DNA of 64,000 nucleotides, taken from Acholeplasmatales bacterium (GTDB lineage Bacteria; Bacillota_I; Bacilli_A; Acholeplasmatales; JAEDCM01). The position numbers were made by a program, and so were the translations under genes. This document shows, piece by piece, positions 20,835-55,796 of this stretch. A model generated the notes under the pieces. It was not told where the DNA came from, searched no databases, and saw nothing but the letters and a program-made list of their open reading frames with translations. Position 1 is the first letter of the stretch. Each line of letters begins with the position of its first letter. Location: assembly GCA_017961685.1 (NCBI GenBank), contig JAGCWW010000084.1, positions 8,450 to 72,449 of the forward strand. The letters run 5' to 3'.

Positions 20835-20922
20835 CTGTGAATGTTGCTTTTCGTTTTGTTTACAGATTAGTTATGATTATTTTGGTTAATAATGTTTTAT
20901 TTAGTGTATTTATTATCATCCA

Positions 20923-20936
20923 CCTCCTTACGGGGG
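20923..20936 (+). repeat. YnTACGn motif copy (intergenic, right member of inverted pair)
   Basis: cctcctTACGGGGG, followed 7 nt later by ATTAAACTTAAT (20944-20955). Confidence 0.9.
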
Positions 20937-20977
20937 TTTTATAATTAAACTTAATCCTTATAATTTAATATATAAAG

Positions 20978-38700: not shown

Positions 38701-39702
38701 CTTGCTAATAGTAAAAATAGTACTACTACAGGTAGAAGAATTGCTAAACTTATTCTTGGGAATAAGGTTAAAAATCTTAAAATTAACAATAAAATTTTGG
38801 ATTTATTCCCGCAAAATCTTATCTTTGTAGATGAAAATATTGGATATAATGCTATAACAAATATTAGAAATAAAGCAATTCCTCTAGGAAATGGTTCTAG
38901 TATAATAATTCAACCAGGACAAGTTGTTGTTGGCAGAGAATGGTTTAATCTTCTTAATGGAACTATTGCTCAAAGAGAAGAAGCTGTTAGAAAACTTGTT
39001 CATGAAAGATTACATTTAATACTACACAGTAACGGAAACGAAAAATATATTGAACAAATAAGAGATATATTCAATGAATTTGTTGCTAAAAGTACAAATG
39101 AAAATCTTAATAAGTACAAGTTTAATGATACTGCTGAACAAGAAGCTAGATATCGGACTGATGGTAAACTCAATGAAGAAGGTTTTGAAGAGTTCTTAGT
39201 TGAAACTTTAACTTCTAAAGAACTTGCTGAAGAATTAAATAGTATTCAAGTAGAAGAAATAGTAGATAATAAACCTATTAAAAAGAGTCTTCTTCAAAAG
39301 ATTATGGAACGCCTTGCTAATATATTCGGTTGGAATATAAAAGAAGGTAGTCTTTATGAAAAAGAATTTAATGTTCTTAGAAATTTCTTTGAAGAAACTA
39401 AAACTGGAGAAGATATTACTACTGGTACACAAACTGCTACTCAACTAGAATTTAATTTTGATGAACCTGTTACTGAGAAAAAAATAGAACAAGAAGAAGA
39501 AATAAAAGAAACACCTACTGAAGAAAAGAAAGAAAATAGAAGAAGAAGGAGTAATTTCTCTAAATTGTATAGTTCTATTCAAGAAAGTCAATCAAATACC
39601 TTTGCAAATACTAGTTCTTTTATTAATAAATTACCTTTTAATCAACAAGCTGAAGTTATAGATAAACTAGATAAAGGTGAAATTCAAACAAGTTGTAGAT
39701 GA
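32800..39702 (+). CDS. giant virion protein with C-terminal HExxH zincin-like motif
   Basis: 2300 aa. HERLH is encoded at 39001-39015 (aa 2068-2072). It has a hydrophobic segment near aa 170-200 and a low-complexity S/T/Q/E linker near aa 1000-1050. Confidence 0.5.
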   Translation: MDIFSFLNNSGTIQVPNPNYKPKSKNNIEPPYITVPSIHTRPNAAVELAKESGFNQYSVTSSEVEKYRNYGLNWNPRDAANGSLDRQLAESQSASSKFMHALEQAIVSEVGIGTLKGISDLIDGIGQAIGASDHDYSNPVSRKLEEWQETFNNDIAPIYTTPGVDISNGGLLDAGWWASNIPSVMSSLTLLIPSTGVVKGVSYLGKLAKVGQGASKLGRITASSAKWAARATRLSKSAAAQKAYAGLRNLTELSSGTKATLGVMAENGVTALLSRTMENYQEARQTYDDMYEHASDAINKMKPEEYDNFLRRNAYFLEGVDTNNKDEVAKAVAKESADKTFAMDFANIGFDILQLYALRNMTFKGFRNQPSRASIRRKHLNSIKYAGMDDAEIAAKRAEMSFLEKSKDKLGDWFYGGRLAVGAQLSEGVEEAVNYVAQQEGMNLGHVMLGEIEDNTFARRLAEYAKAPGLWESAFWGTLGGIVFQELGSGFNRAQNAIAKYNDRKKYKEDAKTKEKVEKPTWKELWQTPELKRRIGDVEARNGDLQDFLNKLDMIENKSLNPYETDENGQARGISNNEKQMLKEKAYTDMLNKMTLRALDSGNFDLLKEYLSSDEIKQVIINSGAVSASDATRYQQDAIKNMEAIEKQYDANVITLNNLTKKLNTNRKEPIPVEYIQLIARNNIEHQLQIKDWEAQLAAWEIEGNEQQEQFRDKLDPNVNYKSAVRLVFLSNQLGELENQKRKLLADKKFINSVSGQQELDFLNNQIEAIRDMIYNLEPDNAVGNLLFTIQNALAYEKDDTGVARHNWTNADYLTFRTNIIELENTEDAATIERIDKYLAELDPRLAGVGKNDIMRHKLLDDNIRRAYDDNRGLTKISQDLHDTFFRIADLQTAIALERNQIKLTEDEVLNEVSAIHNFLNEARKKAIDDANATLAGLAKTYGSDVVRQALYDRYQNNTVKEDYFGTEGKAISDARTFNDALDILNLDSAANRNLFGYIDELLKLQDAISAAQGENSSTSEETISATQTEQADNTLSEQVESDTKQKEQIKPTIPQSETPLQKQSQTSQNGVITLKENGVEYATLIPNSDIDGSYTLNILNNNPSSLAYLNNEDFYTKDGVSLTEDYIISEKPVVRRNKDGSLTPVRKGLIIKASEDNIAKEEEKQVAQAEAEAASPSSTGGVVQTEIPIAPIPVATNVAATNEYVSNQTQSNADVVSGNAANEIGAEVRDALKKGSAIDWNNLRERMMNKYLPSAEDKADTERLIDTAIRSWKGIYERKISNKSNVVDDALVMNSSITEKTRTNKALLDDFYKAIDKLVEKYIKDVAADKSDGKYYVRVEDLLRYCNNATETQTTAQLLFNNLVEYMNSSDKYIVIDGNLSDAINKANQSARTRINQLSTRNGLYGINFEGFVSTLVGDDLKKVLDVVNNLNLGDKIAFTTTPSGIRFTVNDVMIGSLPIPKIGSKGEHWQYNDGWKTDILDVKGTKVSALKDLFKKWILNPDNNVDIQELNDIVIQAAFDKLEQSDLNNLAKQLLKNKEFLKAKKAGFVSDTAESYILLNGLAKLWGYTRQANGLTKEETTELRELSVDKWFDDEVAPSFDMAEALAAKDNGEVIVGKISEGELIRIDDEKDAIPVFDAIGEKHKGQIKIAAAEKIGKLSVAGKGINGQISLDYIGIAGGIGYGNSIVVIPSRSGNHGYVHAFPQPISSSQFTPKIKEIVAAVFAEIDRIGEEGTVDEIYDNLEKFITYLLNKPRNANTPLFRVLGEGISIYRDRATGEKLGFSIVYKKRNKDGSVVKHIVTITNKGRKDGKIYKRSGLTAFVDGTHISDNTKESINALEDFIKKRAVFNIGFNFINSDNNTSLQFNSLAYRDKDTGEFIIEIPNQGKFTFDSFNSFVIDNNLISLTTRPAPDGTNYRKGASVGNQAANQVLKVKLKVDTSTLVEEGNNEPPSATQTTVAKVLDILANSKNSTTTGRRIAKLILGNKVKNLKINNKILDLFPQNLIFVDENIGYNAITNIRNKAIPLGNGSSIIIQPGQVVVGREWFNLLNGTIAQREEAVRKLVHERLHLILHSNGNEKYIEQIRDIFNEFVAKSTNENLNKYKFNDTAEQEARYRTDGKLNEEGFEEFLVETLTSKELAEELNSIQVEEIVDNKPIKKSLLQKIMERLANIFGWNIKEGSLYEKEFNVLRNFFEETKTGEDITTGTQTATQLEFNFDEPVTEKKIEQEEEIKETPTEEKKENRRRRSNFSKLYSSIQESQSNTFANTSSFINKLPFNQQAEVIDKLDKGEIQTSCR
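33375..33388 (+). repeat. YnTACGn motif copy
   Basis: cccttcTACGGGGG, read as P-S-T-G-V. Confidence 0.9.
36230..36245 (-). repeat. YnTACGn motif copy
   Basis: CCCCCGTAaggaaagg, read as T-P-V-R-K-G. Confidence 0.9.
36325..36344 (+). repeat. YnTACGn motif copy
   Basis: tctccttcctcTACGGGGGG, read as S-P-S-S-T-G-G. Confidence 0.9.
38628..38646 (-). repeat. decayed YnTACGn motif copy
   Basis: ccaCCCTCGTAgaggaagg. The reverse complement is ccttcctcTACGAGGGtgg. Confidence 0.5.
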
Positions 39703-39720: not shown

Positions 39721-42700
39721 ATGGATTGTATTTTTTCTGTAGACATTTCAAAGTCTAAAGCACTACAAGCTCTTAAAGATTATTGTGGTGAAAATAGTGA
39801 ACAATTTTTAACGTATATTAATTCTGTAGTAAAGGAACAAGCTGCTGATGGCAGTCTTGTTCCTTCTGCTCATTTTGTAGAATGGTGGAAACAGCGTTTT
39901 AAAAATGAACCTAATTTTAATGCTGGTACTGGTTCTCAAATGAGAGATAGAATTATTAGATATTTTAAAGAAATAAAAGGAGATGTTGAAAGTACTTATA
40001 GAGATGGAGCAACCGCTCAAATACTTTCCACATATGGTTATACTTCTCCGTCTTCTAGAGATTTTTGTAAAAGAATTACAGCAAATTATGTATTAGATGC
40101 TTATAAAAAGAATAGATATATACTTATAAAAGACCCTCAAGTATATAAAGATATACAAGATGCAATAAAAGAACAAGGTGCTAAAACTTTTTATTTTAAT
40201 ATTGCCTTTGATAAACTTAGAGAAGAATTAGCTATAAGAATACTTAAAGCACAAGGTATAAGCAATCCATCAGATGATGACATAGATAATATTTTGGATA
40301 TTATAGAAGATGGTAATAGAAAGTATGTAGAAGATGCTTTAGGGGGTAAAAATATTTCTGTAGAAAATTCTAATCTTATTGCAGTAGTTTATGAATTTCA
40401 AACTTCTCCTGCTTCATTTGTAGAAGAAGTGTCTAGAGATAGTAGACTTTATAAAATATTTAATAAAGATGATGAGTTTGATGACAATAATCAGCCTGAT
40501 GCAGAAGGAGAAAATAATCCTGAAAATGAGGCTGATGAAGATAATGAAGATTTTCTGAATACTACTATTTCAATGTATGACCATACTGGTACATATACTA
40601 GTGCTATGATGCATGTTGATGGTGGTATTAGAGCATATTTAAGTAGTCTTAAGAAATTAAATAGTGGTGTTGGTCTAGATAAAAATCAACCAGATTTGGA
40701 TTTAAATAATCCTCTTGGTATTGCTGACACAATGAACACTGATGAATGTGTAACAATACTTTATCATTATGGCAACTATGACAATGTAGATTCTATGATA
40801 GAATCTATTAAAGCTATTGCTAATAATATTCCTGGATTTGCTGCTTTTCATCAGTTGGCTAAAGACCTTGAAGCTGATAGTGATATTGCTTATCAGTTTT
40901 ATACTACTTTTGGTAAAACAATTATTTCCAAAGTTGAAACTACTGTAAAGGGTTCGATAACAAGAACTAGAATAAGTAATAATCGTAGTAATAAACTTGA
41001 AGCGTTAGGTTTTGAGTTTATGAATTCTGTCAAAACTACAGCTATTGATACTGATTTAGATTTTGCTACAGATGAACTTGCTAATTTAAGAGATAGATTA
41101 AAAACTACTAAACAAGAAATTCTTAAATCTCTTGATAATAAATTTAGAAAAGCTGCTATTGCTGAACTTGCTAAACAACTTAGAAGATATTATCCTACTA
41201 TTTCTGATTATGCTGTAGAAAATTATATTAATAATCATAAGGAAAATGGCATTACTGTAGATGTTGATAAAAACTTTGGAAATCTTATAACTATTTTAGA
41301 AAATACTATAAAATATTCTGAAGGAACTAAAATAGAATATGAAAATAGACAATTAGATATAAATGAAGCTTATAATCATAATAGAAGTTTAGAAAGAAAA
41401 CAATTAGAAACAAATGCTTATGTTCCTGCTTCTGCGTTTATTGATTTAGCTCCATTATATGCCAAACCTTATATAACAAAAGAACAAAAAGGCACAGCTT
41501 TAGAATTAGCTAAAGCTTTAGTTGATTATAGTTTAGTTAGAGTAGAAAATAATTCTAGAACTATACATGGTAATCAATCTTCTGATGTTATAAATAATAG
41601 CTATATTACCAATATTCTCAAAACTTTACAAAATGATACATCTCTTGCAAATTATGGTAAATATAGAGCAAACTCTCATCAATATGATTTCAGTAGAATA
41701 ATGATTGAACATGTTGAAGATGGTGTTGTTGTTAATAAAGGTTTGTTTAGATATAATGATGATGGAGAACTAGTTCAAACAGAATATGCTAAAGACCTTC
41801 TCAAGATTAATCTTTTCAATGGAGCTTCTAATTTAGATACTGATACCAATGTAGCTTATAATCAAATGAGTCAAGGTGATTATATTGGTACAGGTTTTAT
41901 TAATTTCTTTAACGCAGAAGATAAAACCACTGCTAACTATTTTATGCGAGTTCCTTCTGATGCTCCAAGAAATTTTTCAATTAAAGCTCCAAGATATTCA
42001 ATAGCAGGATTATTCAGTATTGCTAATCAATCTGAAGTAACTGCTGCTAAATCTGCTATTCGTAAAAAGGTTACAGAAAAAGGTCTTGTTGAAGACGCAA
42101 TAGACTGGGGAGTAAATGATAAACCATTTGATATTTATTATAGTGATCAAGCTATTCGTCATATGACATCAGATGCTGGAGAAGTATCTGTTAAACTTCC
42201 TGACTTTGTAAAAGGAAATAAAAATTATAAAGAAGGTGAAGAAATAACTGTTAAGTTTAAGTATAAATCTGATAATGCTGAAGATAACCGAGATGTTTAT
42301 CTTATAAGAGGTACTGTCGAAAATGGAAGAATTGTTAATGGTACTTTCTTAGGCGTTATTGGAAATAATTTCTCTTCTGAATTATCTGACGCCTTCGATA
42401 GATATACTGATAGAACTCTAGAAAGACAAGGTATTATTAAATATGCAATAAATAGAAATCATTCTCTTTTTAAACAATTTAGAAATGCTTTCAAACAAGA
42501 ACTTCTTGATGCTGCTGTTGGTATAAATAAATTTTTTGTAACTAATGATGATGGTCTTGTTCAAAGATATTCTGAAAACGAAGCCAAAATGCTTGGTGTA
42601 GAAGAAAAGGCTATTAAATGGAAAGATGGTGTTTCTAAAAATGGAAGAGAAGTATCTGGAGCCTATGAAAATTATCATCATAAAAAAGGAAAAATTGTTG

Positions 42701-45700
42701 AAAAGAAAGAAGGTAAAGAAACATTAGTTGGTAATGTTTTCCATAGTGATAGATTTGTTATATTTGATAAAAATGATAATGAAGTAAGAAATTATGGAGA
42801 AGAGTTACTAGAAGAAGTATTTTCTCTCCTCTACGGGGGGGATGATAATACTTATTTGCATTTTACTAAAAATGCAGATGGTAGCGTAAAAAGAGTAAAT
42901 CTTACTGATACTCAACAAGAAGCGGTTGACAACAAAATTGAAGAATTTATTGTTAATTATATAGAACAAGGTTTCAATAGATTATCTAATGTTGAAGGTT
43001 CTTTAAAAGGTACTGAATTAACTCATAATACTGCTGCCGAATTTTTATTAAACTATCACATGATGTATATCAACTTCAATGACTTGTTTGAAGGTGATAC
43101 AAAGTTTTATGGTACTAGTAGAGATTTCTTAAAGCGTGCTAAAGAAGTACAAGGTAGTGGTGTACCTTATGGTCTTGTAGAATACAATGCTAATCTTGGA
43201 GCTGATAAAACTGAAGTTACAAGAAGTATTCTTACTGGCACTGTGTTTGCTAATGGATATAAAGTAAAACAATATAATAAGTTTAGTGCTGTAACTGTTG
43301 TCAATACAATTATGACAAATGAATCAGCTATTAAAACTTTAAGAAATAAACTTATTAAAGATTGTAAATTATCTGAAGAAGATGCAGATGGATTACTTGC
43401 AGGTTATACTCAAGGAACAAAAGTTAATGATGCTCAGTCTTATATTACTTTTGATGAATGGATTAGACGAATTGCTGCTCGTGGTCAACTTATGAGATAT
43501 AAACCTCTTATAGATAAAATTCTTAATGAAGAAGAACTTAATGCTGAAGAACTTTCAGAGTTTGTTCAAGTTCAAAAGAACTTCTATTATGACCAATATT
43601 ATGATAAGAATGCTGGAGTTTTAGTTCCTCGTCAAATTAAGAATGCTGAATTTGTACTTATTCCTCAACTTATTAAAGGTACAGAACTTGAAGCTGTGGC
43701 TGCTATAATGAATAAGTATGACATCGACCAACTTAATACTGTAGAAACAACTAAGGCAGGTAAAACTGATATTCTTGAAATATTTGATGCTAAAACAGGA
43801 GAAGTTAAACAAGACATTATTGATGAAGTAAATGGCAAGGGTATAAGTAGTTTTGGTAAAAAAGCTACTGCTGCTTCTGAATTATTTAGTTACAATTATT
43901 TGTATACTCAGCAAGAAACTCCCCAACATGTTAATACTGAGAATAAAGCTGGTATTCAAATAATGAAGAAAATACTTGATAATAGTACTCCTGATAGTAA
44001 ACTTTGGGAAACTAAACAAAGATTCTTTAGACTTTATTCTGCAAATATCAGAGATAGTTTCCAAAATCTTATGCAAGAATTGAATCTTGAAGTTGATGAA
44101 AATGGTAATTTAGTTCTTGAAGAAGATGCAGATGGAAATAAAACTATTAAAGGTTTAAATGTTGAGTTATTTTGTCAAAGACTTAAAGAAGAATGTATGC
44201 GTTTAGGTCTTGATAGCAATATGCTTGATTATGTAACTCTTGATGCAACTAGGATGGCAGAAAATGGTTTTAATACTATTATGCCAAACTATATGAGTAT
44301 GGTTTCTCAAAAACTTGAAAGTATTGCTCAAAGTTTGTTTAATAGTAGAATTACAAGACAAAAACTTCCAGGTTTCCATGCTGCTCAGATTACTAATGTA
44401 GGATTTAAAGCTCTTGCTTCGTCTAAAGAACAAGTTTCTTATTCTAAAGAATTAAAATATCATCAAGATGAAAATGGAAAGTATGTTCCTTATGTAGAAA
44501 TAATGCTTCCTGCTTCTGCTTTTGGATTTAAGAGAACTAACGAAGATGAAACTCTTAAGACAAAAGAAGAACTTCTTAAAGAACTTCAAGATGCAGGTCT
44601 TGATGAAATTATAGGTTATCGTATTCCTACTGAAGGTAAACAATCTGTTTGTAGAATGAAAGTTGTAGGCTTTATTGATGATGCTTATGGCTCTACAATA
44701 GTTGTTCCTAATGATTGGGTTACTCAAACAGGTTCTGACTTTGATATTGACTCTGTATATGGTATTCAGTTTGAAACTTATATTGACAAAGAAGGACATA
44801 TAAGAAAAACAGAAAAAATAGATGATTTAGAAATATTATATAAATCCTATGTTCTAAAACATCTTACTAAAGAAGAAAGAATTAAAGCTTTTGAAGACGC
44901 AAAAGCAGGAGAAGCAGTAATAAATGAAATAAAGAATAGAAATAAAGATGAAGATACTAATTATTTCAATAGAGAAAAGTTTATTGCTGAATTAAAACAA
45001 TATTCTACTGAAGCATTATTTGGTGTATTAGAAGATATTGCTGAAGAAAAAGGACTTAAAAGTTTTGAAGAATATTCTAAAGAAGATATTGATGAATTAA
45101 ATTCTCGTGCTTCTAGAAATAATGGAATTCTTCAATGTATGCTTGATATTCTTGGCAGTAATGAAGCTCTTGAAGAAAATCTTTCTCGTTCTAATTTTGA
45201 TGATATAACTAATGCTATTATCAAAAATATGAGTGCTAAAGCTAAATTAGAAAGAGAAAATCGTAGTGCTTATAATTTCTTAGACCAAGCAGCATATCAA
45301 GAAGATGCCATGAGTGGTGCTAGACTTAAAGGCTATAGTGTTACTCGTGATACATTCTGTTCTATTTGTAATACTGTTAGACCTACTATTTCTAAGCAGC
45401 ATCAAGTTAAAGTTGTTTATTCAACTGATATGATTTCTTATAACAAAGCTGTTGAAAGATTTGGAAAAGAAAATGTTGAAAAACAAGGTGATGATAAAAT
45501 TGTTATTACACATGATAGATTAGGTTGGACTAATGATAATAAAAATGTTGTAGGTAAGATTTTAACAGCTTATTCTTCTCAAACTACTGCTCATATTCTC
45601 GATGCTATCAAAGAAGGTGCTGTACCAAATGTAAATGAACTTACTTTTGCAGTATTTAAAATATTCCCAGATTTAGGTATTGACTATGATACTGCTGTTG

Positions 45701-48700
45701 CATTTATGATGCAAGACGGTGTTCGTAGAATTGTTGATGCTTATAATTCTACTAATTCTATTTATCAAGAAAGTAGAGGAAATTATATCAACAAAGCTAT
45801 TCGTGATATAGCTAGAGAATTAGGAATGAATATTTCTGGAGTTTCCAATATATTAGATGTTATATCTGCTCTACAAAAAAGATTTGGTGCTGATTTTGCT
45901 AAAATATTTGGAAAAGATGCAGAAATAACTCTTAATGATGATAAGATTGCTCAAACTGCTATAGATGGAGAACAACTTCAAGATGAAATATTAACCCCCC
46001 GTAGGGGAAAGGATAAACTTCTTTTTGATTTAGGAGTTATACTTCAATATTCTAAACTTAGTCATTTTGGAAATTCTATTACTGCTCTTACTAGAGTTTG
46101 TAATCCTGATAAGTTTGGTGCAAAACAAACAATCTTTGCAACAAATAAAATCTTTGATGACATAAAAGATATACTTAATAGTGATAATCCTATTCCTCTT
46201 GAAGTTAAAAGAACAAATTTCCTTGAAGCTATTTATCCTGATGTAGATAAAACTCTTGATGATTTTATTACAGCTCCTAGAAAAGAATCTGCTTATCCTT
46301 CTCTTTATAATTTCTTAAAATATGCTACTGCTACAAGTATTAAAATTAATAGAAGTTTGTTTACTACACAATCTCCTGAATTTATTAATGCTGTTCGTAG
46401 CATAGAAAGACTTTTAAGTGATAATGGTAAACTTACAGAGAAACAATATAAAGACATTGAGAAATACATCATTGGTCATCTTTATAATACTTGTCAAAGT
46501 ATTATGCGTCCTCTTACTTTCGCGGTCAATGGGGATATTGGGTTTGTACCTATTGCGTTAGAGAATGAAAATAGTCTTTCTCAGCAACAAATGTTTGATG
46601 AAGAACGTCGTCGTATATTTGGATATGGTGCTTCTCCAGAAATAAAACTTGAAGTTGCTAATGTACATGAGCCTACTCAAGATGAAGTTAATGCTTTTGC
46701 AAAGTTAACTCCTGCTCAAAAAGTTGCATACATTCAAGGACATTTTTCTAGTGCCGGTGTATTTAATTATATTCGTACAAATTTATTTAATGAGCGTGCA
46801 GCTAGAAGAACTGGAGCTAGTGGTCAAACTATTGAATTTATTGATACATTAGTAAATGTTGAAGATGTATATCAAGCTTTTGTTAATGCCTTTTCTAGTA
46901 CTAATCCTTTGGTAGCTTTAACTGCTTATGATGTTATTAAATATGCATTTGCTGTTGAAGGTTATAAACTTAAGAGAAATGGTGTTAGCAAAATGATTCC
47001 AAATAGTGTTCTTTATAATGACTTCGGAATATATGGAACAGGAATTGTTCAAGAATTAGATGGAAAAGTTCGTAATATTGGTAAAATATTGGCTGATGAT
47101 ATAGAAAAGATTCAAGAAGATTATATTAGAGGTCATAATATGTATCAAATTCCATCTATTAAAGTTCAAAAACCTAAAGGTAAAGGATATGAACTTGTTT
47201 CAAGAAGCAATGGTATTATTCAACTCGGAAAAGATGACGATAGTATTGCTATAGCTGAAAAGTATAGGATTGTTTATAGACGAGGACAAAACGAAGCTCC
47301 TACGGCAAATGCTTATGTTAGATTAACATTCGGCAAAAGAACTGCTCTGTATAAAATAGATGAAAGAAATAATTCATATTACTTATATCCTCTTAATAAT
47401 CTTGAAGAGAATGAACATGGAGAATTTAGTTCTAATGTAGGAAATAATGTATATCCAAAAGAAGATTATTATCTTAGAATTATTAATGAGTATGAATCTC
47501 AATTCTATGATTTTGATGCTAGTAAATTTAGAGAAATAGCAGATAAATATGATGTTGAAGAATTTAAAGCACCAAAAGAAGAAAAAGTTAAAATCAGTCA
47601 TGCTGCTAAAGAATTTAGTCTTGAACATCCAGCAGATAATATGATAGGTGCTGTTGATAAACTTAAGAAAGATGTACAAAGACATTTTGGCGATGAAGAA
47701 CTTAATAATCCTCTATATATTATAAATGCAGGTTTACATAATGCTATAACTCATCCTGGTTATGCTAATGGTACTACTAAATTATTTACAATTAACAAAG
47801 GAACTGCTAATGAAAGAGTTGTAAGACTTAATGTTTATGGTTTAGAGTATAGTATTCTTGAAAGACTTGCAAATAGGTATCTTGATAAAAATACAGGTAA
47901 ACAAATTAGTAAAGGCGATGAAAAATATACTAATATAATAAAATTCTTTAGAGATAATGGTATTGTTAATATTTCTAAAAATCATCCAACTGTTTTTGTA
48001 GTAAGACCTGCTGCTATTGAAGATGATGGTTTACGTAGGTCTAGTCTTGTTGAAACTGGTACTACTGCTTATAAAGCTATAAATCGTAGATTATCATCTG
48101 TTGAAGATGAAGCTGCAATTAACGCTAATCAAAGACTTAGAGATAAAGGTATTACAACTGATAAGAATTCTGTTGCTAATCATATTGATGAAGTAATTAG
48201 AACAACTGCTGAATATGTTGCAACTGTAACAGAAAAAACTGTTAATGGCCTTAAGTATTTTGCTGAAGACCCAAATGGTAATGGGTATTTATCTGTAACA
48301 GACCCTGGTGTAATTGATTTAATTAAAAACGATCCTGCTCTTATAAGAAAGTTCCTAAAGATTATTCTTGATGCTGAGGCTATTGTAAGTAATTTTAAGA
48401 CTATAAATGAACTTGATATTAAATCTCAAGACCCTGAACTTCAAAGATATCTTAATAAGATTAAAGAGTGTGTCAATGATTTACAAAATAATGCTTTAAT
48501 TCGTGGTGCTAAAGAATTATTTGCAAATAATTATCTTGCAAAGCTAAGTAGTGACCCTCTTATTCAACAAGATATTCTTAACATTCTTGATGGTTATCAT
48601 TCTACAAATTCATTTACTGCTTGGGTTAATGACTTACAAGAAACAACTAATCCGTTTATTCAAGTTTTAAGTAAACAAGTAATCGCTGATATTAGAGCTA

Positions 48701-51700
48701 AAGAATTTGAAGCTGTTCGTAGAGTTCGTGCTTGGCAATCATTTGTAAAAGGAATTAAAGCTAAAGCTGCTGCAGCAGGTAAAACTATAAATTGGGATAA
48801 TATCATTGATGAAGACGGTAGATTTATTCAAGAATATACTCAATCTTTAGTAGATGATATGAATCAAATGCGTGATGCTATTGCATCAGCTAAAGCTACT
48901 TATGGAGAAGGAAGTATTGAACACCTTGAAGCTCAACTTAAATACAATAAGTGGAAACTTGAACATATCAATCAAGAACTTGAAGATGACTATTATCGTA
49001 AGAGAATAGAACTTGATGAAGCTATGCTTCATGGTGTAAGAACTTCTTACATAGATGAAAGAACTGGAATGGTTGTTGAAAGTGAAGAACTTAGTGGAGG
49101 TTATCCAATAGTATTCACTGAATATAAGAAACTTGAAGCTAGACGTAGAGATATTTTAAGTCATGTAGTAAATGGAGTTCTTGATGATTATTGGAAACAA
49201 CAATTAGATGAAGTTAATAGTAAAATAAATGATTTAACTAATCAACTTTATCATGATCCTGTTACTGGTGATCTTATTAGTCGTACAGAATATGATAAAT
49301 ATTTAAATCCTGTTTCTGGTACCGAAGAAGAAAAACGACAAAAACTTCTATATTCTGCTGCTAGTCAAAGAGCTATCGCTAAATACATAAAAGATGTAAG
49401 AGAACTTAATACTGAATATTATGGTTATGATGTAGAATTTGGTTTTGAAGAGGAACTTCAGAGAAATCTTCATATAGTTGAAAGCTATGAGAAGCGTGAT
49501 GCTAATGGAAACATTAGTACTCCTATGAACTTACTTATGGAAAATGATGAGTATGTTCGTGCTAAAGAATGGCTTGCTTCTAACGCTAGATTTGTTGTAT
49601 CTCTTGCTGATGATTCAGAACTTGCTAGAAAACTTAATGAGGCTTATAATGTATTAAGAAGAAGTGATAATACTAAAGAAAATTCTTATGGTCTTGTTAT
49701 AGCTAGAAAAGCTAAAGACAGAAATGCTTATGATAATCGTGGTGTAATAGACGGTACAAAGTTTACAGATGACGATATAAAAGCTATCAAAGCTGACCAA
49801 CAAGCAGCATATAGTTTCAGAGAAGATGCTCCATTCTCGGATAAGGGACTTATAAGCAATGCTTCTCCTACGGGGGAGATATATACATCTGAGTTCTACA
49901 AAGGTATGACTTCTAATGGTACTTCTAATCCAGAATGGATTAAAAAAGTACATGAAATAAATGAACTTCTTGCTCCATACTATGATAATGGTACTAAAAC
50001 TATTAGATTTGACCTTATACCAAACACTGACGAGGGCAGAGCTGTTTATACTAAACTTGAACAACTTTATAAGGATTTAGCCGAAATTAAGAAAACAGTT
50101 GATGGAGATAATGGTAAAGAAATTGCACAATTTATTGAAAAGAACGTTGATTTTAACATCGATAAAGATGAATTTAATAAACAAAAAAGTCTTGCTGAAG
50201 AAAAAGGTAAACTATATTATAGTTTCTGGGTTAAAGCTAATATGGAAATAGTTGATGATGAAGCTGTTCCAAATCATTATATTTATGGTTACACTACACC
50301 TAAAGCAGAAATTAAAGAAAAGTATTTAGATAAGAAAAAGACTGAAGCTCTTCAACTTATTAATAAAATTTATACTACAGTACCTACGGAATACTATTAT
50401 CAAAAAGTTCAAGAAGTTAAACAACAAGGCAAAGAAGCTTATGATAAATGGTATCATGAAAATCATATTTATAATCCATATACTCATACTTATGAACCTC
50501 TTCGTTGTTGGACTAAAAGAACATTCAGAGATACTTCTTCTGCTGTAGGTAAATGGGAAGCTGCAATGAGTAAAAGAACTAGAAAAGCAAAACAAGAATA
50601 TATTAATCCTAATTATAAACCTGAAGTAGGTAATGCTCTTAATTATAAGAAAGGTAGTGGATATGATAATTCTAGAATAAACGATGCAAATGAATTTGAA
50701 AATGAACTTAAACTAGAAATGCAAAAACTTCTTTCTGACCTTGTTAAAACTAAATTTGGAAGAAGATTTATTGATAAAGGTTATCTTCCTGTTAGACGTA
50801 AAGCAGAAGAGCATGATGCTAAGTTTTGGGGAAAAGAACTTCTTAAAACTATCGGTTGGGTTGAAGGACATTCTGGTGAAGAACCTTTCTATGAGGATTT
50901 AGATTATGCTAGAGATAAAACTATTTCAATGCCTATGCTTTCTCTTATTGGTCAAAAAACTCTTGAAAGTTTAAATATAAAAGAACCAAAACGAGAAGAA
51001 TATAATACTGACGCTGAGTATGCAGCTGCTGTAGATAAGTATAATAAAGATGTTGCAGAACTTAAAGAAAATAATAAGCAAGCACATCAGGATGCTATTG
51101 ATAGAAATTGGGAAGAAGTTATAAAAGATTTTATTCTTCAAGCTTCTCATTTCAATGCAGTTCAAGATAACAAATATATGCTATTCTATGGAAAGTCTAT
51201 GCTTGAGAATATGGGTGTTTATCAAAGAAGATATGGTTTCTTTGGAGATTATAAGAAAGACTATATAAATTCTGATGATACTACAACTGAATATATCAAG
51301 CGTAAAGATGAAAATCTTCTTAAACAATATGAAAATTGGATTCGTAGAATAGTTTATGACCAGTGGAAAGAGTCTAATGGAATGTTTACTAAATGGGCTT
51401 CTAGACTTCAAAGTATAACATCTGCTCAATACATGATGATGAATATTAGAGGTGGTATTGCTAATGTTACTTTAGGTGAAACTAACATTCTTGCTGAAGC
51501 TTTTGCTAAAGAATACTTTGGAACAAAAGATTGGCTTGCAGGTAAATCATATTGGATGGCTGGTATTCCAAGTTATTTTGCTAATGCACATAAACCAATT
51601 TCTACTAGTGTTGCAGACGCTATTATTAAATTCTTTAATGTAGTTGACTTTGATGAACTTACTGGTAAATCTAGAATTATAGAGAATCCTGTTAGTGAAG

Positions 51701-53115
51701 GAATGAGGAGATTTACAGGTGCTATGTATAGTCCTCAAAATATTGGTGAAAACTTCATGCAAAATGGTGCTATGTTTAGTATGATGATGAGTCATCGTCT
51801 ATATGAAATAGAAGACCCTGAAACTCATGAAAAGACTATTGTCTTTAAGAATGAACATGAAGCTATGCGGGATGCAGAAATTCAAGCTCTTAGAGATGTT
51901 ATTAAAGATTCCCCCTTAGAGGAAAGATTTAATGATTTCATTAAAAATATTAAAGAAGATGCCAATAAGATGAAAGATTATGCTTGGCGAAGAAAAGATT
52001 TTATAACTCAATTTGCTAAACAATATCTTACTAAAGCACAACAACAAGAATATGTTACTAAACGTAAGGCTCGTCAAGTTGAATATAAACAAGAGTTTTA
52101 TAATGATGAAGCTCATCCTAGATTAATTGACCAATTTGCTCTTGGTGATGACCAACAATTAAGTTTCAAGAAAGATAGCAAACTTGCAGAATATGATATT
52201 CCTAATCAAAATGGTGAACCTAGTGAAGCTTATAAACTTCTTGCAAACTTTAGAGGAAGAGTTATTTCTGTAAACAAAAAGATACATGGTATTTATGATA
52301 GACTTGGTCAAGCACAACTTGAAAAACTATGGTATGGTAGTTTAGTTATGCAATATCATAAACACATGTATACAGGAATACTTAAACGTTGGAGAAGAGA
52401 AGGTTCTTATAATGAAGAAAGAGGTACTATTGAAAAAGGTTGTTATATAGCTCTTATGGACTTCCTTGCAACTCCTTGGCAACAATATAAAGAAAAACTT
52501 GGTATGAATGATGCTCAAGTTGAAACTATGGAAGGAACTCAAAATCTTCTTGGAGAAATAGTTGATTTTGTTACAAACATTCAACTTAATTGGAATCTTC
52601 TTCCTGAACATGAAAGAGCTAATATTCGTAGATGTCTTGGTGATGTATGTGGTGTTCTAAGCGCATTATTTATGGCTATTGCACTTCGTGCTATGATGGA
52701 TGACGATGATGAAGATAGCATCTTATTCAATCTAGGTCTTTATGAAGCTGATAGACTTGCATCTGAAAGTTTCCAATTTAATCCTCTTGGTATGTATAGT
52801 GAAGCAAAGAAACTTTGGAGTACTCCTATTGCTGCTCAAAGCGGATTACAAGATATTATACAAAGTTGTGGACTTCTGTCTAAAATGATTATTGAAGGAG
52901 AAGATTTTGACCCTTATTATCATAGTGGACGATTTGCTGGAGAACATAAGTTAAGTGTATATGTTCAACGTCGTATTCCAATTTGGAGAGGCATTAAGAC
53001 TGGATTTATTGATATTGTAGATAGTAATTCATATTACAAAATGGGAGATAATATGCTTGGCATACTTCCTGTAAATCATTGGTCTAATCTTATTAAAGGT
53101 GTAGAGGATAAATAA
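39721..53115 (+). CDS. giant virion-packaged RNA polymerase candidate (crAss-like two-barrel RNAP fusion protein)
   Basis: 4464-aa uninterrupted ORF. GYRIPTEGKQS...TGSDFDIDSVYG carries the aspartate triad DFDID at 44737-44751 (aa 1673-1677), which resembles the NADFDGD metal-binding motif of double-psi-beta-barrel RNAPs. It is the last gene of the virion block, as in crAss-like phages. Confidence 0.55.
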   Translation: MDCIFSVDISKSKALQALKDYCGENSEQFLTYINSVVKEQAADGSLVPSAHFVEWWKQRFKNEPNFNAGTGSQMRDRIIRYFKEIKGDVESTYRDGATAQILSTYGYTSPSSRDFCKRITANYVLDAYKKNRYILIKDPQVYKDIQDAIKEQGAKTFYFNIAFDKLREELAIRILKAQGISNPSDDDIDNILDIIEDGNRKYVEDALGGKNISVENSNLIAVVYEFQTSPASFVEEVSRDSRLYKIFNKDDEFDDNNQPDAEGENNPENEADEDNEDFLNTTISMYDHTGTYTSAMMHVDGGIRAYLSSLKKLNSGVGLDKNQPDLDLNNPLGIADTMNTDECVTILYHYGNYDNVDSMIESIKAIANNIPGFAAFHQLAKDLEADSDIAYQFYTTFGKTIISKVETTVKGSITRTRISNNRSNKLEALGFEFMNSVKTTAIDTDLDFATDELANLRDRLKTTKQEILKSLDNKFRKAAIAELAKQLRRYYPTISDYAVENYINNHKENGITVDVDKNFGNLITILENTIKYSEGTKIEYENRQLDINEAYNHNRSLERKQLETNAYVPASAFIDLAPLYAKPYITKEQKGTALELAKALVDYSLVRVENNSRTIHGNQSSDVINNSYITNILKTLQNDTSLANYGKYRANSHQYDFSRIMIEHVEDGVVVNKGLFRYNDDGELVQTEYAKDLLKINLFNGASNLDTDTNVAYNQMSQGDYIGTGFINFFNAEDKTTANYFMRVPSDAPRNFSIKAPRYSIAGLFSIANQSEVTAAKSAIRKKVTEKGLVEDAIDWGVNDKPFDIYYSDQAIRHMTSDAGEVSVKLPDFVKGNKNYKEGEEITVKFKYKSDNAEDNRDVYLIRGTVENGRIVNGTFLGVIGNNFSSELSDAFDRYTDRTLERQGIIKYAINRNHSLFKQFRNAFKQELLDAAVGINKFFVTNDDGLVQRYSENEAKMLGVEEKAIKWKDGVSKNGREVSGAYENYHHKKGKIVEKKEGKETLVGNVFHSDRFVIFDKNDNEVRNYGEELLEEVFSLLYGGDDNTYLHFTKNADGSVKRVNLTDTQQEAVDNKIEEFIVNYIEQGFNRLSNVEGSLKGTELTHNTAAEFLLNYHMMYINFNDLFEGDTKFYGTSRDFLKRAKEVQGSGVPYGLVEYNANLGADKTEVTRSILTGTVFANGYKVKQYNKFSAVTVVNTIMTNESAIKTLRNKLIKDCKLSEEDADGLLAGYTQGTKVNDAQSYITFDEWIRRIAARGQLMRYKPLIDKILNEEELNAEELSEFVQVQKNFYYDQYYDKNAGVLVPRQIKNAEFVLIPQLIKGTELEAVAAIMNKYDIDQLNTVETTKAGKTDILEIFDAKTGEVKQDIIDEVNGKGISSFGKKATAASELFSYNYLYTQQETPQHVNTENKAGIQIMKKILDNSTPDSKLWETKQRFFRLYSANIRDSFQNLMQELNLEVDENGNLVLEEDADGNKTIKGLNVELFCQRLKEECMRLGLDSNMLDYVTLDATRMAENGFNTIMPNYMSMVSQKLESIAQSLFNSRITRQKLPGFHAAQITNVGFKALASSKEQVSYSKELKYHQDENGKYVPYVEIMLPASAFGFKRTNEDETLKTKEELLKELQDAGLDEIIGYRIPTEGKQSVCRMKVVGFIDDAYGSTIVVPNDWVTQTGSDFDIDSVYGIQFETYIDKEGHIRKTEKIDDLEILYKSYVLKHLTKEERIKAFEDAKAGEAVINEIKNRNKDEDTNYFNREKFIAELKQYSTEALFGVLEDIAEEKGLKSFEEYSKEDIDELNSRASRNNGILQCMLDILGSNEALEENLSRSNFDDITNAIIKNMSAKAKLERENRSAYNFLDQAAYQEDAMSGARLKGYSVTRDTFCSICNTVRPTISKQHQVKVVYSTDMISYNKAVERFGKENVEKQGDDKIVITHDRLGWTNDNKNVVGKILTAYSSQTTAHILDAIKEGAVPNVNELTFAVFKIFPDLGIDYDTAVAFMMQDGVRRIVDAYNSTNSIYQESRGNYINKAIRDIARELGMNISGVSNILDVISALQKRFGADFAKIFGKDAEITLNDDKIAQTAIDGEQLQDEILTPRRGKDKLLFDLGVILQYSKLSHFGNSITALTRVCNPDKFGAKQTIFATNKIFDDIKDILNSDNPIPLEVKRTNFLEAIYPDVDKTLDDFITAPRKESAYPSLYNFLKYATATSIKINRSLFTTQSPEFINAVRSIERLLSDNGKLTEKQYKDIEKYIIGHLYNTCQSIMRPLTFAVNGDIGFVPIALENENSLSQQQMFDEERRRIFGYGASPEIKLEVANVHEPTQDEVNAFAKLTPAQKVAYIQGHFSSAGVFNYIRTNLFNERAARRTGASGQTIEFIDTLVNVEDVYQAFVNAFSSTNPLVALTAYDVIKYAFAVEGYKLKRNGVSKMIPNSVLYNDFGIYGTGIVQELDGKVRNIGKILADDIEKIQEDYIRGHNMYQIPSIKVQKPKGKGYELVSRSNGIIQLGKDDDSIAIAEKYRIVYRRGQNEAPTANAYVRLTFGKRTALYKIDERNNSYYLYPLNNLEENEHGEFSSNVGNNVYPKEDYYLRIINEYESQFYDFDASKFREIADKYDVEEFKAPKEEKVKISHAAKEFSLEHPADNMIGAVDKLKKDVQRHFGDEELNNPLYIINAGLHNAITHPGYANGTTKLFTINKGTANERVVRLNVYGLEYSILERLANRYLDKNTGKQISKGDEKYTNIIKFFRDNGIVNISKNHPTVFVVRPAAIEDDGLRRSSLVETGTTAYKAINRRLSSVEDEAAINANQRLRDKGITTDKNSVANHIDEVIRTTAEYVATVTEKTVNGLKYFAEDPNGNGYLSVTDPGVIDLIKNDPALIRKFLKIILDAEAIVSNFKTINELDIKSQDPELQRYLNKIKECVNDLQNNALIRGAKELFANNYLAKLSSDPLIQQDILNILDGYHSTNSFTAWVNDLQETTNPFIQVLSKQVIADIRAKEFEAVRRVRAWQSFVKGIKAKAAAAGKTINWDNIIDEDGRFIQEYTQSLVDDMNQMRDAIASAKATYGEGSIEHLEAQLKYNKWKLEHINQELEDDYYRKRIELDEAMLHGVRTSYIDERTGMVVESEELSGGYPIVFTEYKKLEARRRDILSHVVNGVLDDYWKQQLDEVNSKINDLTNQLYHDPVTGDLISRTEYDKYLNPVSGTEEEKRQKLLYSAASQRAIAKYIKDVRELNTEYYGYDVEFGFEEELQRNLHIVESYEKRDANGNISTPMNLLMENDEYVRAKEWLASNARFVVSLADDSELARKLNEAYNVLRRSDNTKENSYGLVIARKAKDRNAYDNRGVIDGTKFTDDDIKAIKADQQAAYSFREDAPFSDKGLISNASPTGEIYTSEFYKGMTSNGTSNPEWIKKVHEINELLAPYYDNGTKTIRFDLIPNTDEGRAVYTKLEQLYKDLAEIKKTVDGDNGKEIAQFIEKNVDFNIDKDEFNKQKSLAEEKGKLYYSFWVKANMEIVDDEAVPNHYIYGYTTPKAEIKEKYLDKKKTEALQLINKIYTTVPTEYYYQKVQEVKQQGKEAYDKWYHENHIYNPYTHTYEPLRCWTKRTFRDTSSAVGKWEAAMSKRTRKAKQEYINPNYKPEVGNALNYKKGSGYDNSRINDANEFENELKLEMQKLLSDLVKTKFGRRFIDKGYLPVRRKAEEHDAKFWGKELLKTIGWVEGHSGEEPFYEDLDYARDKTISMPMLSLIGQKTLESLNIKEPKREEYNTDAEYAAAVDKYNKDVAELKENNKQAHQDAIDRNWEEVIKDFILQASHFNAVQDNKYMLFYGKSMLENMGVYQRRYGFFGDYKKDYINSDDTTTEYIKRKDENLLKQYENWIRRIVYDQWKESNGMFTKWASRLQSITSAQYMMMNIRGGIANVTLGETNILAEAFAKEYFGTKDWLAGKSYWMAGIPSYFANAHKPISTSVADAIIKFFNVVDFDELTGKSRIIENPVSEGMRRFTGAMYSPQNIGENFMQNGAMFSMMMSHRLYEIEDPETHEKTIVFKNEHEAMRDAEIQALRDVIKDSPLEERFNDFIKNIKEDANKMKDYAWRRKDFITQFAKQYLTKAQQQEYVTKRKARQVEYKQEFYNDEAHPRLIDQFALGDDQQLSFKKDSKLAEYDIPNQNGEPSEAYKLLANFRGRVISVNKKIHGIYDRLGQAQLEKLWYGSLVMQYHKHMYTGILKRWRREGSYNEERGTIEKGCYIALMDFLATPWQQYKEKLGMNDAQVETMEGTQNLLGEIVDFVTNIQLNWNLLPEHERANIRRCLGDVCGVLSALFMAIALRAMMDDDDEDSILFNLGLYEADRLASESFQFNPLGMYSEAKKLWSTPIAAQSGLQDIIQSCGLLSKMIIEGEDFDPYYHSGRFAGEHKLSVYVQRRIPIWRGIKTGFIDIVDSNSYYKMGDNMLGILPVNHWSNLIKGVEDK
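40337..40346 (+). repeat. decayed YnTACGn motif copy
   Basis: gctttaGGGGGt. It lacks the C of TACG and has a weak pyrimidine tract. Confidence 0.35.
42821..42841 (+). repeat. YnTACGn motif copy
   Basis: tttctctcctcTACGGGGGGG (7 G), read as L-L-Y-G-G-D. Confidence 0.9.
45995..46013 (-). repeat. YnTACGn motif copy
   Basis: CCCCCCGTAggggaaagga, read as T-P-R-R-G-K. Confidence 0.9.
49862..49876 (+). repeat. YnTACGn motif copy
   Basis: cttctccTACGGGGG, read as S-P-T-G-E. Confidence 0.9.
51911..51926 (-). repeat. decayed YnTACGn motif copy
   Basis: CCCCCTTAgaggaaag, with G changed to T in the GTA. Confidence 0.45.
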
Positions 53116-53150
53116 TAATTTATAATTATAACAATTCATAATATATTTAT

Positions 53151-53183
53151 AAGAGTCTGTCGTGAGATAGGCTCTTATTTTTG
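53151..53183 (+). terminator. rho-independent terminator of the virion block
   Basis: aagagtct / aggctctt 8-bp stem (one G.U pair) with a 10-nt loop, followed by atttttgttt. Confidence 0.7.
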
Positions 53184-55710: not shown

Positions 55711-55727
55711 TATCTCCTTTACGGGGG
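55711..55727 (+). repeat. YnTACGn motif copy (intergenic, left member of inverted pair)
   Basis: tatctccttTACGGGGG. Confidence 0.9.
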
Positions 55728-55778
55728 TGTTTTAATAAACAATATCTTGTATTACATTAATAAAGTTTTGCTCTCAAT

Positions 55779-55796
55779 CCCCCGTAAGAGGAGATA
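55779..55796 (-). repeat. YnTACGn motif copy (intergenic, right member of inverted pair)
   Basis: CCCCCGTAagaggagata. Together with 55711-55727 it forms a 17-bp inverted repeat with one bulge. Confidence 0.9.

Follow-up and report, generated by a model that had tools for sequence, protein, structure and literature searches.

Module map of a predicted single-gene virion RNA polymerase in an Intestiviridae crAss-like phage

The window, i.e., the whole stretch of 64,000 nucleotides analysed here, contains a gene of 13.4 kb on the forward strand, which raises the question of which functions are combined in one polypeptide of this size and whether it acts as one chain. As stated in a preliminary description made from the DNA sequence alone, the open reading frame (39721-53115) is uninterrupted, with an ATG start, zero internal stops and 4464 amino acids (predicted mass ~507 kDa). 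The window belongs to an Intestiviridae crAss-like phage: its major capsid protein shares 83 % identity with Obtuvirinae phages, and portal and capsid PHROGs were matched. With a probability of about 0.9, the giant gene represents the form that the crAss-like virion RNA polymerase (RNAP) takes in the Intestiviridae, orthologous to gp44 of the prototype crAssphage, and hence an already known type in a divergent genome.

Orthology with gp44 is apparent from (i) the BLASTP alignment of aa 1-4459 with aa 1-4619 of the giant protein of phage cr271_1, (ii) three segments colinear with gp44, and (iii) an 8-way alignment of giant proteins. The genomic context agrees, with the giant gene closing the virion block, a large HExxH-encoding gene upstream and a block on the opposite strand downstream. 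Identity to any database protein does not exceed 57 % in the core and amounts to 43.5 % overall for the nearest annotated relative. At the nucleotide level, the annotated phage collection contained no close genome (best match 76 % identity over 12 % of the gene).

The single-polypeptide form had been regarded as unusual in the preliminary description. This view does not hold, since seven annotated Intestiviridae relatives including the prototype crAssphage carry the same single giant gene (4070-4620 aa), as do 18 of 18 complete IMG/VR loci; a fused giant RNAP is therefore not novel. The split-gene state is that of the Steigviridae (phi14:2, crAss001), and the study on phi14:2 already noted that these proteins are fused into one huge polyprotein in some phages. 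The present contribution is a residue-level map of the fused form, which delimits the polymerase body with its landmarks, the linker and the cargo module at the C-terminus (Table 1). The label 'nuclear pore complex-like protein' given to the giant gene in the GenBank records of cr271_1 and cr8_1 is a misannotation.

Table 1. Coordinates of the giant gene, its modules and adjacent features in the window
Feature	Position (nt)	Strand	Basis or remark
Partner virion protein, 2300 aa, crAssphage gp45 orthologue	32800..39702	+	BLAST to gp45 and cr271_1 upstream gene
Giant gene, KP06_gp44 orthologue: predicted virion RNAP + C-terminal cargo module	39721..53115	+	ORF call, cr271_1/gp44 colinearity
N-terminal region aa 1-297	39721..40611	+	no BLAST alignment except with cr271_1 and ctcc615, the closest relatives
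Acidic stretch aa 248-283, 15 D/E vs 1 K/R	40462..40569	+	
gp66-type virion RNAP body aa 298-2256	40612..46488	+	hhalign, profile vs 6VR4
First (beta-like) barrel region aa ~1101-1392, before connector	43021..43896	+	approximate boundaries
Connector-domain equivalent aa 1393-1554	43897..44382	+	mapped from gp66 1095-1238
Catalytic barrel segment, IGYRIPTEGKQS (aa 1631-1642) to GSDFDID	44611..44751	+	invariant, 8/8 giants
Bridge-helix equivalent aa ~1852-1892, approximate	45274..45396	+	mapped from gp66 1529-1559
Trigger-loop equivalent aa ~1943-1983, approximate	45547..45669	+	mapped from gp66 1598-1636
Junction/linker aa ~2551-2850, least conserved, gap-rich	47371..48270	+	identity to other giants 0.17-0.21
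Middle segment aa 2961-3174	48601..49242	+	weak hhalign match to gp076 604-827, probability 83 %, E = 8e-6
All-alpha C-terminal module aa 3808-4431	51142..53013	+	common to Crassvirales virion cargo proteins
Single strongly hydrophobic helix aa ~4304-4322	52630..52686	+	Kyte-Doolittle peak 1.77; DDDDED acidic run after it
Terminator-like hairpin + T-run	53149..53178	+	34 nt past stop codon
Motif copy ctcctc-TACGGGGG (42832+), encodes invariant L-Y-G	42826..42839	+	same alignment column in 6/8 genomes
Exact motif copy	45996..46009	-	cr271_1 copy at same alignment column
Exact motif copy (49869+)	49863..49876	+	
Decayed motif copy TAAGGGGG, one mismatch	51911..51924	-	

Module architecture and possible processing

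According to the preliminary description, no function was assignable before aa ~1500 and after aa ~1900. Both flanks do contain assignable parts: aa 298-2256 are homologous to aa 232-1861 of the phi14:2 virion RNAP gp66 (GenBank gp077; PDB 6VR4; hhalign E = 8e-51, 1531 columns), and aa 3808-4431 to phi14:2 gp076 (aa 885-1410; hhalign probability 99.9 %, E = 7.5e-32) and, by BLASTP, crAss001 gp49. A second profile-profile alignment with gp66 extended over up to 1677 columns (E = 4e-55). For the ~1300 residues of aa ~2260-2960 and ~3175-3800, no relative was detected outside the Intestiviridae.

The N-terminal 297 residues yielded no match beyond the closest relatives and no Pfam family, the other genomes becoming alignable from aa ~280-330 onwards. 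The acidic stretch close to their end is present in all eight giants, directly N-terminal to the residue aligned with aa 232 of gp66. Judged from its place in the alignment, it is the positional equivalent of the cleft-blocking domain of gp66 (aa 196-233) and may serve self-inhibition. Within the polymerase body, aa 1191-1362 of the first-barrel region aligned with aa 932-1095 of 6VR4, and this region is rich in invariant residues (K1286, K1307, NAEFVLxP 1308-1315). The connector, bridge-helix and trigger-loop landmarks of gp66 likewise map onto conserved segments of the giant protein, the trigger-loop region containing the invariant residues T1956, A1957, D1961, K1964 and N1970.

The structural model of the all-alpha C-terminal module (AF2; pLDDT 78.7, pTM 0.80) matched, among other entries of BFVD, phi14:2 S0A048 (Foldseek, E = 1e-15), and a structural search with it retrieved no solved neighbour. 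A hydrophobic peak equivalent to that of its single strongly hydrophobic helix is found in cr271_1, gp44, phi14:2 gp076 and crAss001 gp49. From domain architecture, this module more likely serves packaging or delivery than as a subunit of the polymerase, given that unrelated N-terminal enzymes carry it in other crAss lineages. The older designation of this part of gp44 as an 'unknown RNAP subunit' is thus probably wrong, the module being common to cargo with other enzymes.

Polymerase body and C-terminal module are separated by a junction that coincides with a gap between the gp44 BLAST segments (aa 2547-2859) and is a candidate linker or processing region. In an alternative reading, the giant protein would be a true polyprotein that is cleaved at this linker, either by the upstream protein through its HExxH domain or by a different protease, into a ~280-kDa RNAP and a ~200-kDa cargo protein, equivalents of crAss001 gp50 and gp49, respectively. 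The two modules are indeed separate genes in Steigviridae, the junction is the least conserved and most gap-rich part of the protein, cleavage was held likely by the authors of the phi14:2 study, and zincin peptidases also accompany N4-type virion RNAPs. Moreover, the adjoining gene encodes a conserved HExxH protein, its HERLH (aa 2068-2072, nt 39001-39015) occupying a position equivalent to that in gp45, in cr271_1 and in crAss001 gp47. Its homologue in this region, gp45, is annotated as zincin, but Pfam gave no match for the protein of the window. Neither a cleavage site nor a processed product is known, and the fusion is intact in every Intestiviridae genome examined, implying translation at least as a single chain. 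Processing is accordingly rated at slightly less than even odds.

Catalytic core and polymerase identity

The preliminary description proposed a crAss-type two-barrel virion RNAP with DFDID at nt 44737-44751. This position corresponds to aa 1673-1677, within the stretch IGYRIPTEGKQS...TQTGSDFDIDSVYG quoted there; GACTTTGATATTGAC is the sole match in the window to the back-translated DFDID pattern (shuffles 0/100), and the loop equals the catalytic 1361-DFDID-1365 of gp66. A phmmer search with aa 1001-2000 recovered 6VR4 (E = 8.9e-23) with identical GSDFDID and IGYRIP loop, and a profile search against 6VR4 yielded E = 2.5e-30; together with the hhalign match over aa 298-2256, homology to gp66 thus reaches far beyond the motif. 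The full-length query did not recover 6VR4 from the PDB sequences, which is a query-length or filter effect, because the 1000-aa segment does so. Full-length searches of Pfam and PHROGs, both without a model for the giant-protein family, gave nothing relevant, and Pfam scans of sub-segments only sub-threshold noise.

The absence of a double-psi beta-barrel fold around the catalytic region had been named as a refuting outcome, but the fold comparison supports the polymerase: the AF2 model of aa 1080-1980 had 6VR4 as top Foldseek match (E = 3.2e-20, probability 1.0), the model being moderately confident (pLDDT 68) and of a global TM of 0.30 to 6VR4, with the barrels not superposed individually. 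All further matches of this model, to Pol V, AR9 and PhiKZ RNAPs, were weak. DFDID agrees with the family rule, according to which the fourth position of the metal-binding motif DFDxD is Ile or Val, and G1671, D1673, F1674, D1675 and D1677 are invariant in all eight giants. In gp66, which is virion-borne and whose Mg-dependent RNA synthesis on DNA templates resists rifampicin, each D-to-A change in the triad abolishes activity; D1673, D1675 and D1677 are the predicted Mg-binding residues of the catalytic barrel. Such mutants as well as virion mass spectrometry have already been reported for phi14:2 and crAss001 proteins. Sequence and model together place the giant protein in the gp66 family, as a predicted crAss-type two-barrel virion RNAP, bearing out the earlier proposal.

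A chiefly structural or ejection protein, in which the polymerase-like part is a degenerate relic incapable of RNA synthesis, is very improbable. Most of the protein is helical and free of enzymatic signatures, and there is a weak likeness, below significance, to T7 internal virion protein D; yet the triad and its surrounding loop are invariant over eight genomes sharing 28-48 % identity overall, the bridge-helix and trigger-loop regions are conserved, and polymerase activity has been shown for the homologue gp66. An artefact of assembly or annotation, e.g., two or three genes merged via a missed stop or a chimeric contig, was considered in the preliminary description and could be suggested by the family entries in protein databases (fragments of at most 1555 aa only), but is practically excluded by the end-to-end colinearity with the independently assembled cr271_1 gene, by the same single ORF in seven annotated genomes and in all 18 IMG/VR relatives containing the whole gene (stop-free, 4305-4757 aa), and by a composition even along the whole gene. 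Terminator-like sites, one of which follows the gene, number three in 1 kb (0.1 expected).

A dispersed nucleotide motif

The preliminary description also reported three canonical and two decayed copies of a motif inside the gene. As the motif was not defined there, it was taken as Y6-TACGGGGG, apart from which no word of the window is strongly over-represented; a k-mer enrichment scan, and not a generic repeat finder, revealed it. The window contains 18 exact copies (~0.2 expected), or 20 at up to one mismatch (0.81 expected). Within the gene, three exact copies are confirmed and one decayed copy is credible, whereas the second decayed candidate (49263+, two mismatches) is indistinguishable from chance, with 10 two-mismatch instances observed versus 11.7 in shuffles. 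The cr271_1 copy at the column of the minus-strand copy 45996 lies in another reading frame and encodes a different peptide. A ~17-nt element, ATCYTY-TACGGGG-[G/C]GG, occupies conserved positions in and around the giant gene and occurs throughout Intestiviridae genomes. The motif is family-wide and under selection at the nucleic-acid level.

Several functions were considered for this motif. An RNA hairpin (stem of Y-tract and G-run, UACG tetraloop) was suggested by favourable local folds (mean z -0.99 versus -0.28 in controls), but was rejected, since the clade with the GGGCGG variant retains the upstream ATCTTC without compensatory change (>20 instances). A promoter is unlikely, 13 of 20 copies being intragenic and both strands being used. 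Strand alternation and even spacing are no general rule (P = 0.017 and 0.0009 in the window, 0.058 and 0.063 in cr271_1, absent in p-crAssphage). An inverted motif pair upstream of 'IHF-like' genes is a weak lead, the gene at 20978-21664 being Pfam CrAss_Ring_2, a tail ring protein. Neither Rfam families nor tRNAs were found in the window, and a literature search retrieved no paper tying the motif sequence to crAss phages. That the ~17-nt element is an undescribed cis-acting signal for a phage-encoded factor, conceivably the virion RNAP itself, is an improbable proposition. The early transcripts of phi14:2 showed no common motif that would define recognition sites of its RNAP. Were the virion RNAP the reader of the element, the giant gene would contain signals addressed to the polymerase that it encodes. 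The motif is a more interesting by-product than the re-identification of the RNAP.

Comparison with known systems

In the proposed mechanism, a single ~507-kDa chain would combine a two-barrel, Mg-dependent and DNA-dependent RNAP (aa ~298-2256), a linker and the all-alpha C-terminal module. By homology, it would be synthesized late and enter the capsid as cargo alongside the upstream HExxH protein, where the acidic segment may hold it inactive prior to ejection. It would then pass the tail partly unfolded, ahead of or with the DNA, refold in the host and transcribe the early genes without recourse to the polymerase of the host.

Among cellular enzymes, Neurospora QDE-1 and the eukaryotic RNAi RdRPs are single-chain two-barrel polymerases and, according to the published structure, the closest relatives of gp66; direct similarity to QDE-1 was not detected in searches with the protein of the window. 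N4 gp50 (~3500 aa) resembles the giant protein in its predicted mode of action, as a giant packaged polymerase which the virion ejects for early transcription in the host, and it possesses flanking injection/encapsidation regions and an associated zincin peptidase. It differs in its T7-like single-subunit fold as opposed to two barrels, and N4 or T7 RNAP chains were recovered neither by sequence nor by fold searches with the window protein. The likeness to N4-like virion RNAPs is a functional analogy only.

The Steigviridae homologues share ~17-25 % identity with the giant protein. In case of crAss001, gp50 corresponds to the polymerase part and gp49 to the C-terminal module, and gp47 carries HExxH like the upstream protein of the window; in contrast to the latter's arrangement, these are three separate genes with gp47 on the opposite strand. 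All three products were found in virions by mass spectrometry and modelled as ejected cargo. In case of phi14:2, gp66 is identical in DFDID and flanking loop and is the best structural match, but is a stand-alone protein of 2180 aa. The C-terminal module there constitutes the tail of gp076 (gp65 in the original paper), a separately encoded protein that carries HExxH at its N-terminus, unlike the window, where HExxH resides on the upstream protein. The phi14:2 products gp076-078 are annotated as structural from MS/MS.

The nearest counterpart is KP06_gp44 of Carjivirus communis (prototype crAssphage, 4070 aa), annotated as 'putative RNAP catalytic subunit fused to unknown RNAP subunit'. It and its orthologues in cr271_1, cr8_1, ctbg_1, cr11_1, cr3_1 and crAss002 (gp33) differ from the protein of the window by an overall identity of only 28-48 % and, except for cr271_1, by an N-terminal region that BLAST does not align. 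In all of them, as here, one giant gene ends the virion block, preceded by a gene for a ~2000-2700-aa HExxH protein and followed by a replication block on the opposite strand, and beyond aa ~298 the proteins run colinear up to their C-termini, both the DFD[IV]D loop and the C-terminal module being retained.

Virion RNA polymerase in the giant protein

The uninterrupted ORF at 39721-53115 on the plus strand (ATG start) encodes a giant protein of 4464 aa which includes a virion RNA polymerase of the phi14:2 kind. As stated in the preliminary description, DFDID is encoded at 44737-44751, within IGYRIPTEGKQS...TQTGSDFDIDSVYG; it is the sole match of the back-translated pattern in 64 kb, and none of 100 shuffles matched. 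When searched with the whole protein, Pfam, PHROGs and PDB sequences yielded no match, owing to insufficient sensitivity. Taken alone, aa 1001-2000 match the phi14:2 virion DNA-dependent RNA polymerase gp66 (PDB 6VR4; E=8.9e-23), with IGYRIPTEGKQS...TQTGSDFDIDSVYG opposite IGYRIPNQGQSS...TKTGSDFDIDKMY, and a profile built from eight full-length giants (the present protein and seven annotated Intestiviridae orthologues) matches 6VR4 at E=2.5e-30. Profile-profile comparison with phi14:2 gp66 plus crAss001 gp50 equates aa 298-2256 with gp66 232-1861 (E=8e-51 in a local run; a second result for the same comparison was E=4e-55 over 1677 columns). When aa 1080-1980 were modelled with AlphaFold2 (alignment of 48 sequences, pLDDT 68), 6VR4 was the only strong Foldseek match in the PDB (E=3.2e-20, probability 1.0), followed by weak matches to the two-barrel polymerases Pol V and the AR9 and PhiKZ non-virion RNAPs. 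Residues G1671, D1673, F1674, D1675 and D1677 as well as YRIPTEGKQS are unchanged in all eight giants, the overall identity of which is only 28-48%. The RNA-polymerase reading is thus borne out by sequence, profile and fold matches; from these, the mapped gp66 landmarks and the invariant residues, a 6VR4-like fold is predicted for aa 1550-1750, i.e., the barrel fold is not missing there.

The earlier view that the bulk of the protein defies assignment is not supported, since both the polymerase body and a C-terminal module matching phi14:2 gp076 and crAss001 gp49 can be assigned. The acidic stretch preceding the polymerase body coincides exactly in position with the cleft-blocking domain of gp66 (aa 196-233), which, in crystals of the self-inhibited enzyme, fills the groove for the RNA-DNA hybrid. 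Its acidic character is kept in 8/8 giants, and it may be functionally equivalent to that domain.

Features of the giant protein, its surroundings and the YTACGGGGG motif (aa, residues of the giant protein; other positions, nucleotides of the window)
Feature	Position	Strand	Remarks
Upstream ORF	32800-39702	+	2300 aa; orthologue of crAssphage gp45; HERLH at aa 2068
N-terminal region	aa 1-297		BLAST-alignable only with closest relatives; ends in acidic stretch
Acidic stretch	aa 248-283		15 D/E, 1 K/R
Polymerase body	aa 298-2256		profile-profile match with gp66
Connector	aa 1393-1554		mapped from published gp66 landmark
DFDID	aa 1673-1677		mapped from published gp66 landmark
Bridge helix	aa ~1852-1892		mapped from published gp66 landmark
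Trigger loop	aa ~1943-1983		mapped from published gp66 landmark
Least conserved, most gap-rich stretch	aa ~2550-2850		gap between BLAST segments with gp44
Middle segment	aa 2961-3174		weak match to phi14:2 gp076 604-827 (probability 83%, E=8e-6)
C-terminal module	aa 3808-4431		gp076 885-1410 (probability 99.9%, E=7.5e-32); also crAss001 gp49
Terminator-like hairpin and T-run	53149-53178	+	34 nt past giant gene stop codon
Terminator-like hairpin and T-run	53259-53228	-	junction of convergent blocks
Terminator-like hairpin and T-run	53502-53471	-	junction of convergent blocks
Motif copies	3916, 9729, 16530, 20928, 28406, 33380, 36335, ~42831, ~49868, 55719, 62183	+	
Motif copies	11100, 20822, 28193, 36230, 38630, 45996, 51911, 55779, 63361	-	
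Exact motif copies in giant ORF	~42832, ~49869	+	
Exact motif copy in giant ORF	45996	-	
One-mismatch motif copy in giant ORF	51911	-	
Bipartite motif copies	9729-9757, 20928-20956		
Bipartite motif copy	63341-63369	-	
Bipartite motif copy in an IMG/VR relative	L001:26359		

Phage identity and the fused gene among relatives

The window (GC ~30%) consists of a plus-strand gene block up to ~53 kb followed by a minus-strand block. Located 5' of the giant ORF are genes with matches to the portal and major capsid PHROGs of crAss phages and to the crAss tail ring protein Pfam family; the capsid protein shares 83% identity with its counterparts in the Obtuvirinae phages cr271_1 (pig) and ctcc615 (mouse). 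Hence, the window comes from a crAss-like phage and belongs to Intestiviridae. A near-identical genome is absent from the annotated phage collection, the top nucleotide match covering 12% of the gene at 76% identity. The upstream gene stops 18 nt 5' of the giant gene, and three terminator-like hairpins are located where the convergent blocks meet (0.1 expected). A tRNA-Gln directly follows the giant gene in cr271_1 and cr8_1; the window contains no tRNA. For a 380-aa ORF (425-1567, plus strand), the match with the crAss portal profile is confined to the C-terminal half of the latter (positions 425-802 of 827), perhaps on account of the window start or of a split or intron in the portal gene. 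A 56-nt direct repeat (14086-14141/14434-14489, 77% identity, 348 nt apart) within a 988-aa ORF (12354-15320) points to domain duplication in a tail protein.

The DFDID region is matched by 141 phage records. The fused polypeptide, previously regarded as unusual, is encoded by the same giant gene in prototype crAssphage (Carjivirus communis; KP06_gp44, 4070 aa) and other Intestiviridae; gp44 carries the annotation 'putative RNAP catalytic subunit fused to unknown RNAP subunit'. Annotated orthologues sampled from three subfamilies include crAss002 and cr3_1 (4245 aa each), cr11_1 (4388 aa), ctbg_1 (4407 aa), cr8_1 (4422 aa) and cr271_1 (4620 aa). Likewise, in each of the 18 IMG/VR relatives in which the gene is complete, a single ORF of 4305-4757 aa runs through without a stop codon, and DFDxD falls at aa 1565-1871. 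The alignment of the present protein with that of cr271_1 spans the full length, and the one with gp44 extends from aa ~298 to 4450, which excludes an assembly artefact; the giant gene is a divergent member of a known, already-annotated kind. In Steigviridae, by contrast, the genes are split: phi14:2 has separate gp078, gp077 (2180 aa, "gp66" of the phi14:2 paper) and gp076, and crAss001 has gp50, gp49 and gp47, the last on the other strand. According to the phi14:2 paper, the DFDxD protein is encoded in all crAss-like phages, and neighbouring proteins are in some phages fused as one huge polyprotein which is likely cleaved. The present protein may be cut in this way at its gap-rich linker.

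The giant orthologues in MT774394.1 (cr271_1, 52341-66203) and MT774384.1 (cr8_1, 3426-16694) bear the GenBank label 'nuclear pore complex-like protein', which is wrong for a virion RNA polymerase gene. The database homologues (P0001-P0143) are all fragments of at most 1555 aa, even from 40-190 kb contigs; in the protein collection, the giants of crAss phages seem to exist as truncated or split entries and are therefore under-reported by single-protein searches.

A dispersed YTACGGGGG motif

The preliminary description counted three canonical and two decayed copies of an undefined motif inside the ORF. A k-mer scan gave one outstanding word, YTACGGGGG; three exact copies and one with a single mismatch lie in the ORF, whereas copies with two mismatches are no more frequent than expected by chance. 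With at most one mismatch, 20 copies are present in the window (0.81 expected), on both strands, 13 of them intragenic. About six pyrimidines always precede the word, the dispersed GC-rich element comprising ~six pyrimidines followed by TACGGGGG. The exact 8-mer occurs 18 times in the window, 17 times in cr271_1 and 10 times in p-crAssphage (0.2-0.3 expected), with no motif copy in the phi14:2 and crAss001 regions. A 14-mer variant matched at least 120 IMG/VR stretches, mostly on crAss-sized contigs, and the 3' tails are lineage-specific in relatives (GGGGCGG, GGGGGGG). The motif is a genome-wide feature, not a property of the giant gene.

A minus-strand copy occupies the same alignment column in the window and cr271_1 in different reading frames encoding unrelated peptides; selection therefore acts at the nucleic acid level. 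At another column, 6/8 genomes have a copy, encoding invariant L-Y-G. Four inverted pairs are spaced 60-213 nt apart (20822-20936, 28193-28414, 36230-36343, 55719-55787), including an intergenic pair 5' of the tail ring protein 2 gene (20978-21664) which is kept in cr271_1 (record positions 31906/31986). A convergent pair ~2.6-3 kb 3' of the giant gene recurs in the IMG/VR relatives L136, L144 and L149. Some copies are bipartite, YTACGGGGG-N10-AAACTTAAT, with a spacing of exactly 10 nt; the one at 9729 ends 3 nt short of the start codon at 9760, and this form might resemble a promoter or leader. Folding suggests an RNA hairpin (Y-tract/G-run stem, UACG loop), a reading contradicted by the GGGCGG clade, in which the compensatory changes that it requires are missing. 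The evenness of spacing between copies and their alternation between strands are significant in the window only. A matching family is absent from Rfam, and among the papers searched none pairs the motif sequence with crAss.

C-terminal module and comparison with known virion polymerases

A single helix of the C-terminal module (aa ~4304-4322) is strongly hydrophobic, and it is conserved in every lineage. The AlphaFold2 model of the module is confident and all-alpha (pLDDT 78.7, pTM 0.80). No significant neighbour was found among solved structures; in a viral predicted-structure library the module matches crAss-like proteins (E 1e-47 to 1e-9), among them phi14:2 gp076 (E=1e-15). In other lineages the module stands behind unrelated N-terminal parts (PD-(D/E)XK nuclease, "exonuclease", ART-PolyVal). 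HExxH is located near the C-terminus of the upstream-type protein in the window, cr271_1, crAssphage gp45 (annotated as 'RNAP-associated protein fused to zincin protease') and crAss001 gp47, but near the N-terminus of gp076 in phi14:2, i.e., it is mobile among crAss proteins. The upstream ORF itself matches no Pfam or PHROG family. Helix, fold, unrelated partners and mobile HExxH together suggest a shared packaging or delivery module rather than a polymerase subunit.

For the giant protein itself, the analysis shows its homology and predicted fold, the catalytic residues, the arrangement of modules and the synteny. Its homologue gp66 is virion-borne, requires Mg and each of three aspartates, uses single-stranded or denatured DNA as template and is responsible for rifampicin-resistant early transcription, while crAss001 gp47, gp49 and gp50 were found in virions and modelled as capsid cargo needing partial unfolding for tail passage. 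Judging from these homologues, the giant protein is probably packaged, ejected and refolded, and would then transcribe the early genes. Neither N4 nor T7 polymerase was among the matches recovered for it, and the polymerase fold of the N4 virion RNAP is unrelated. Outside the order, this N4 enzyme is the closest functional analogue; its polymerase is combined with an injection region and with an encapsidation region that has a zincin peptidase.
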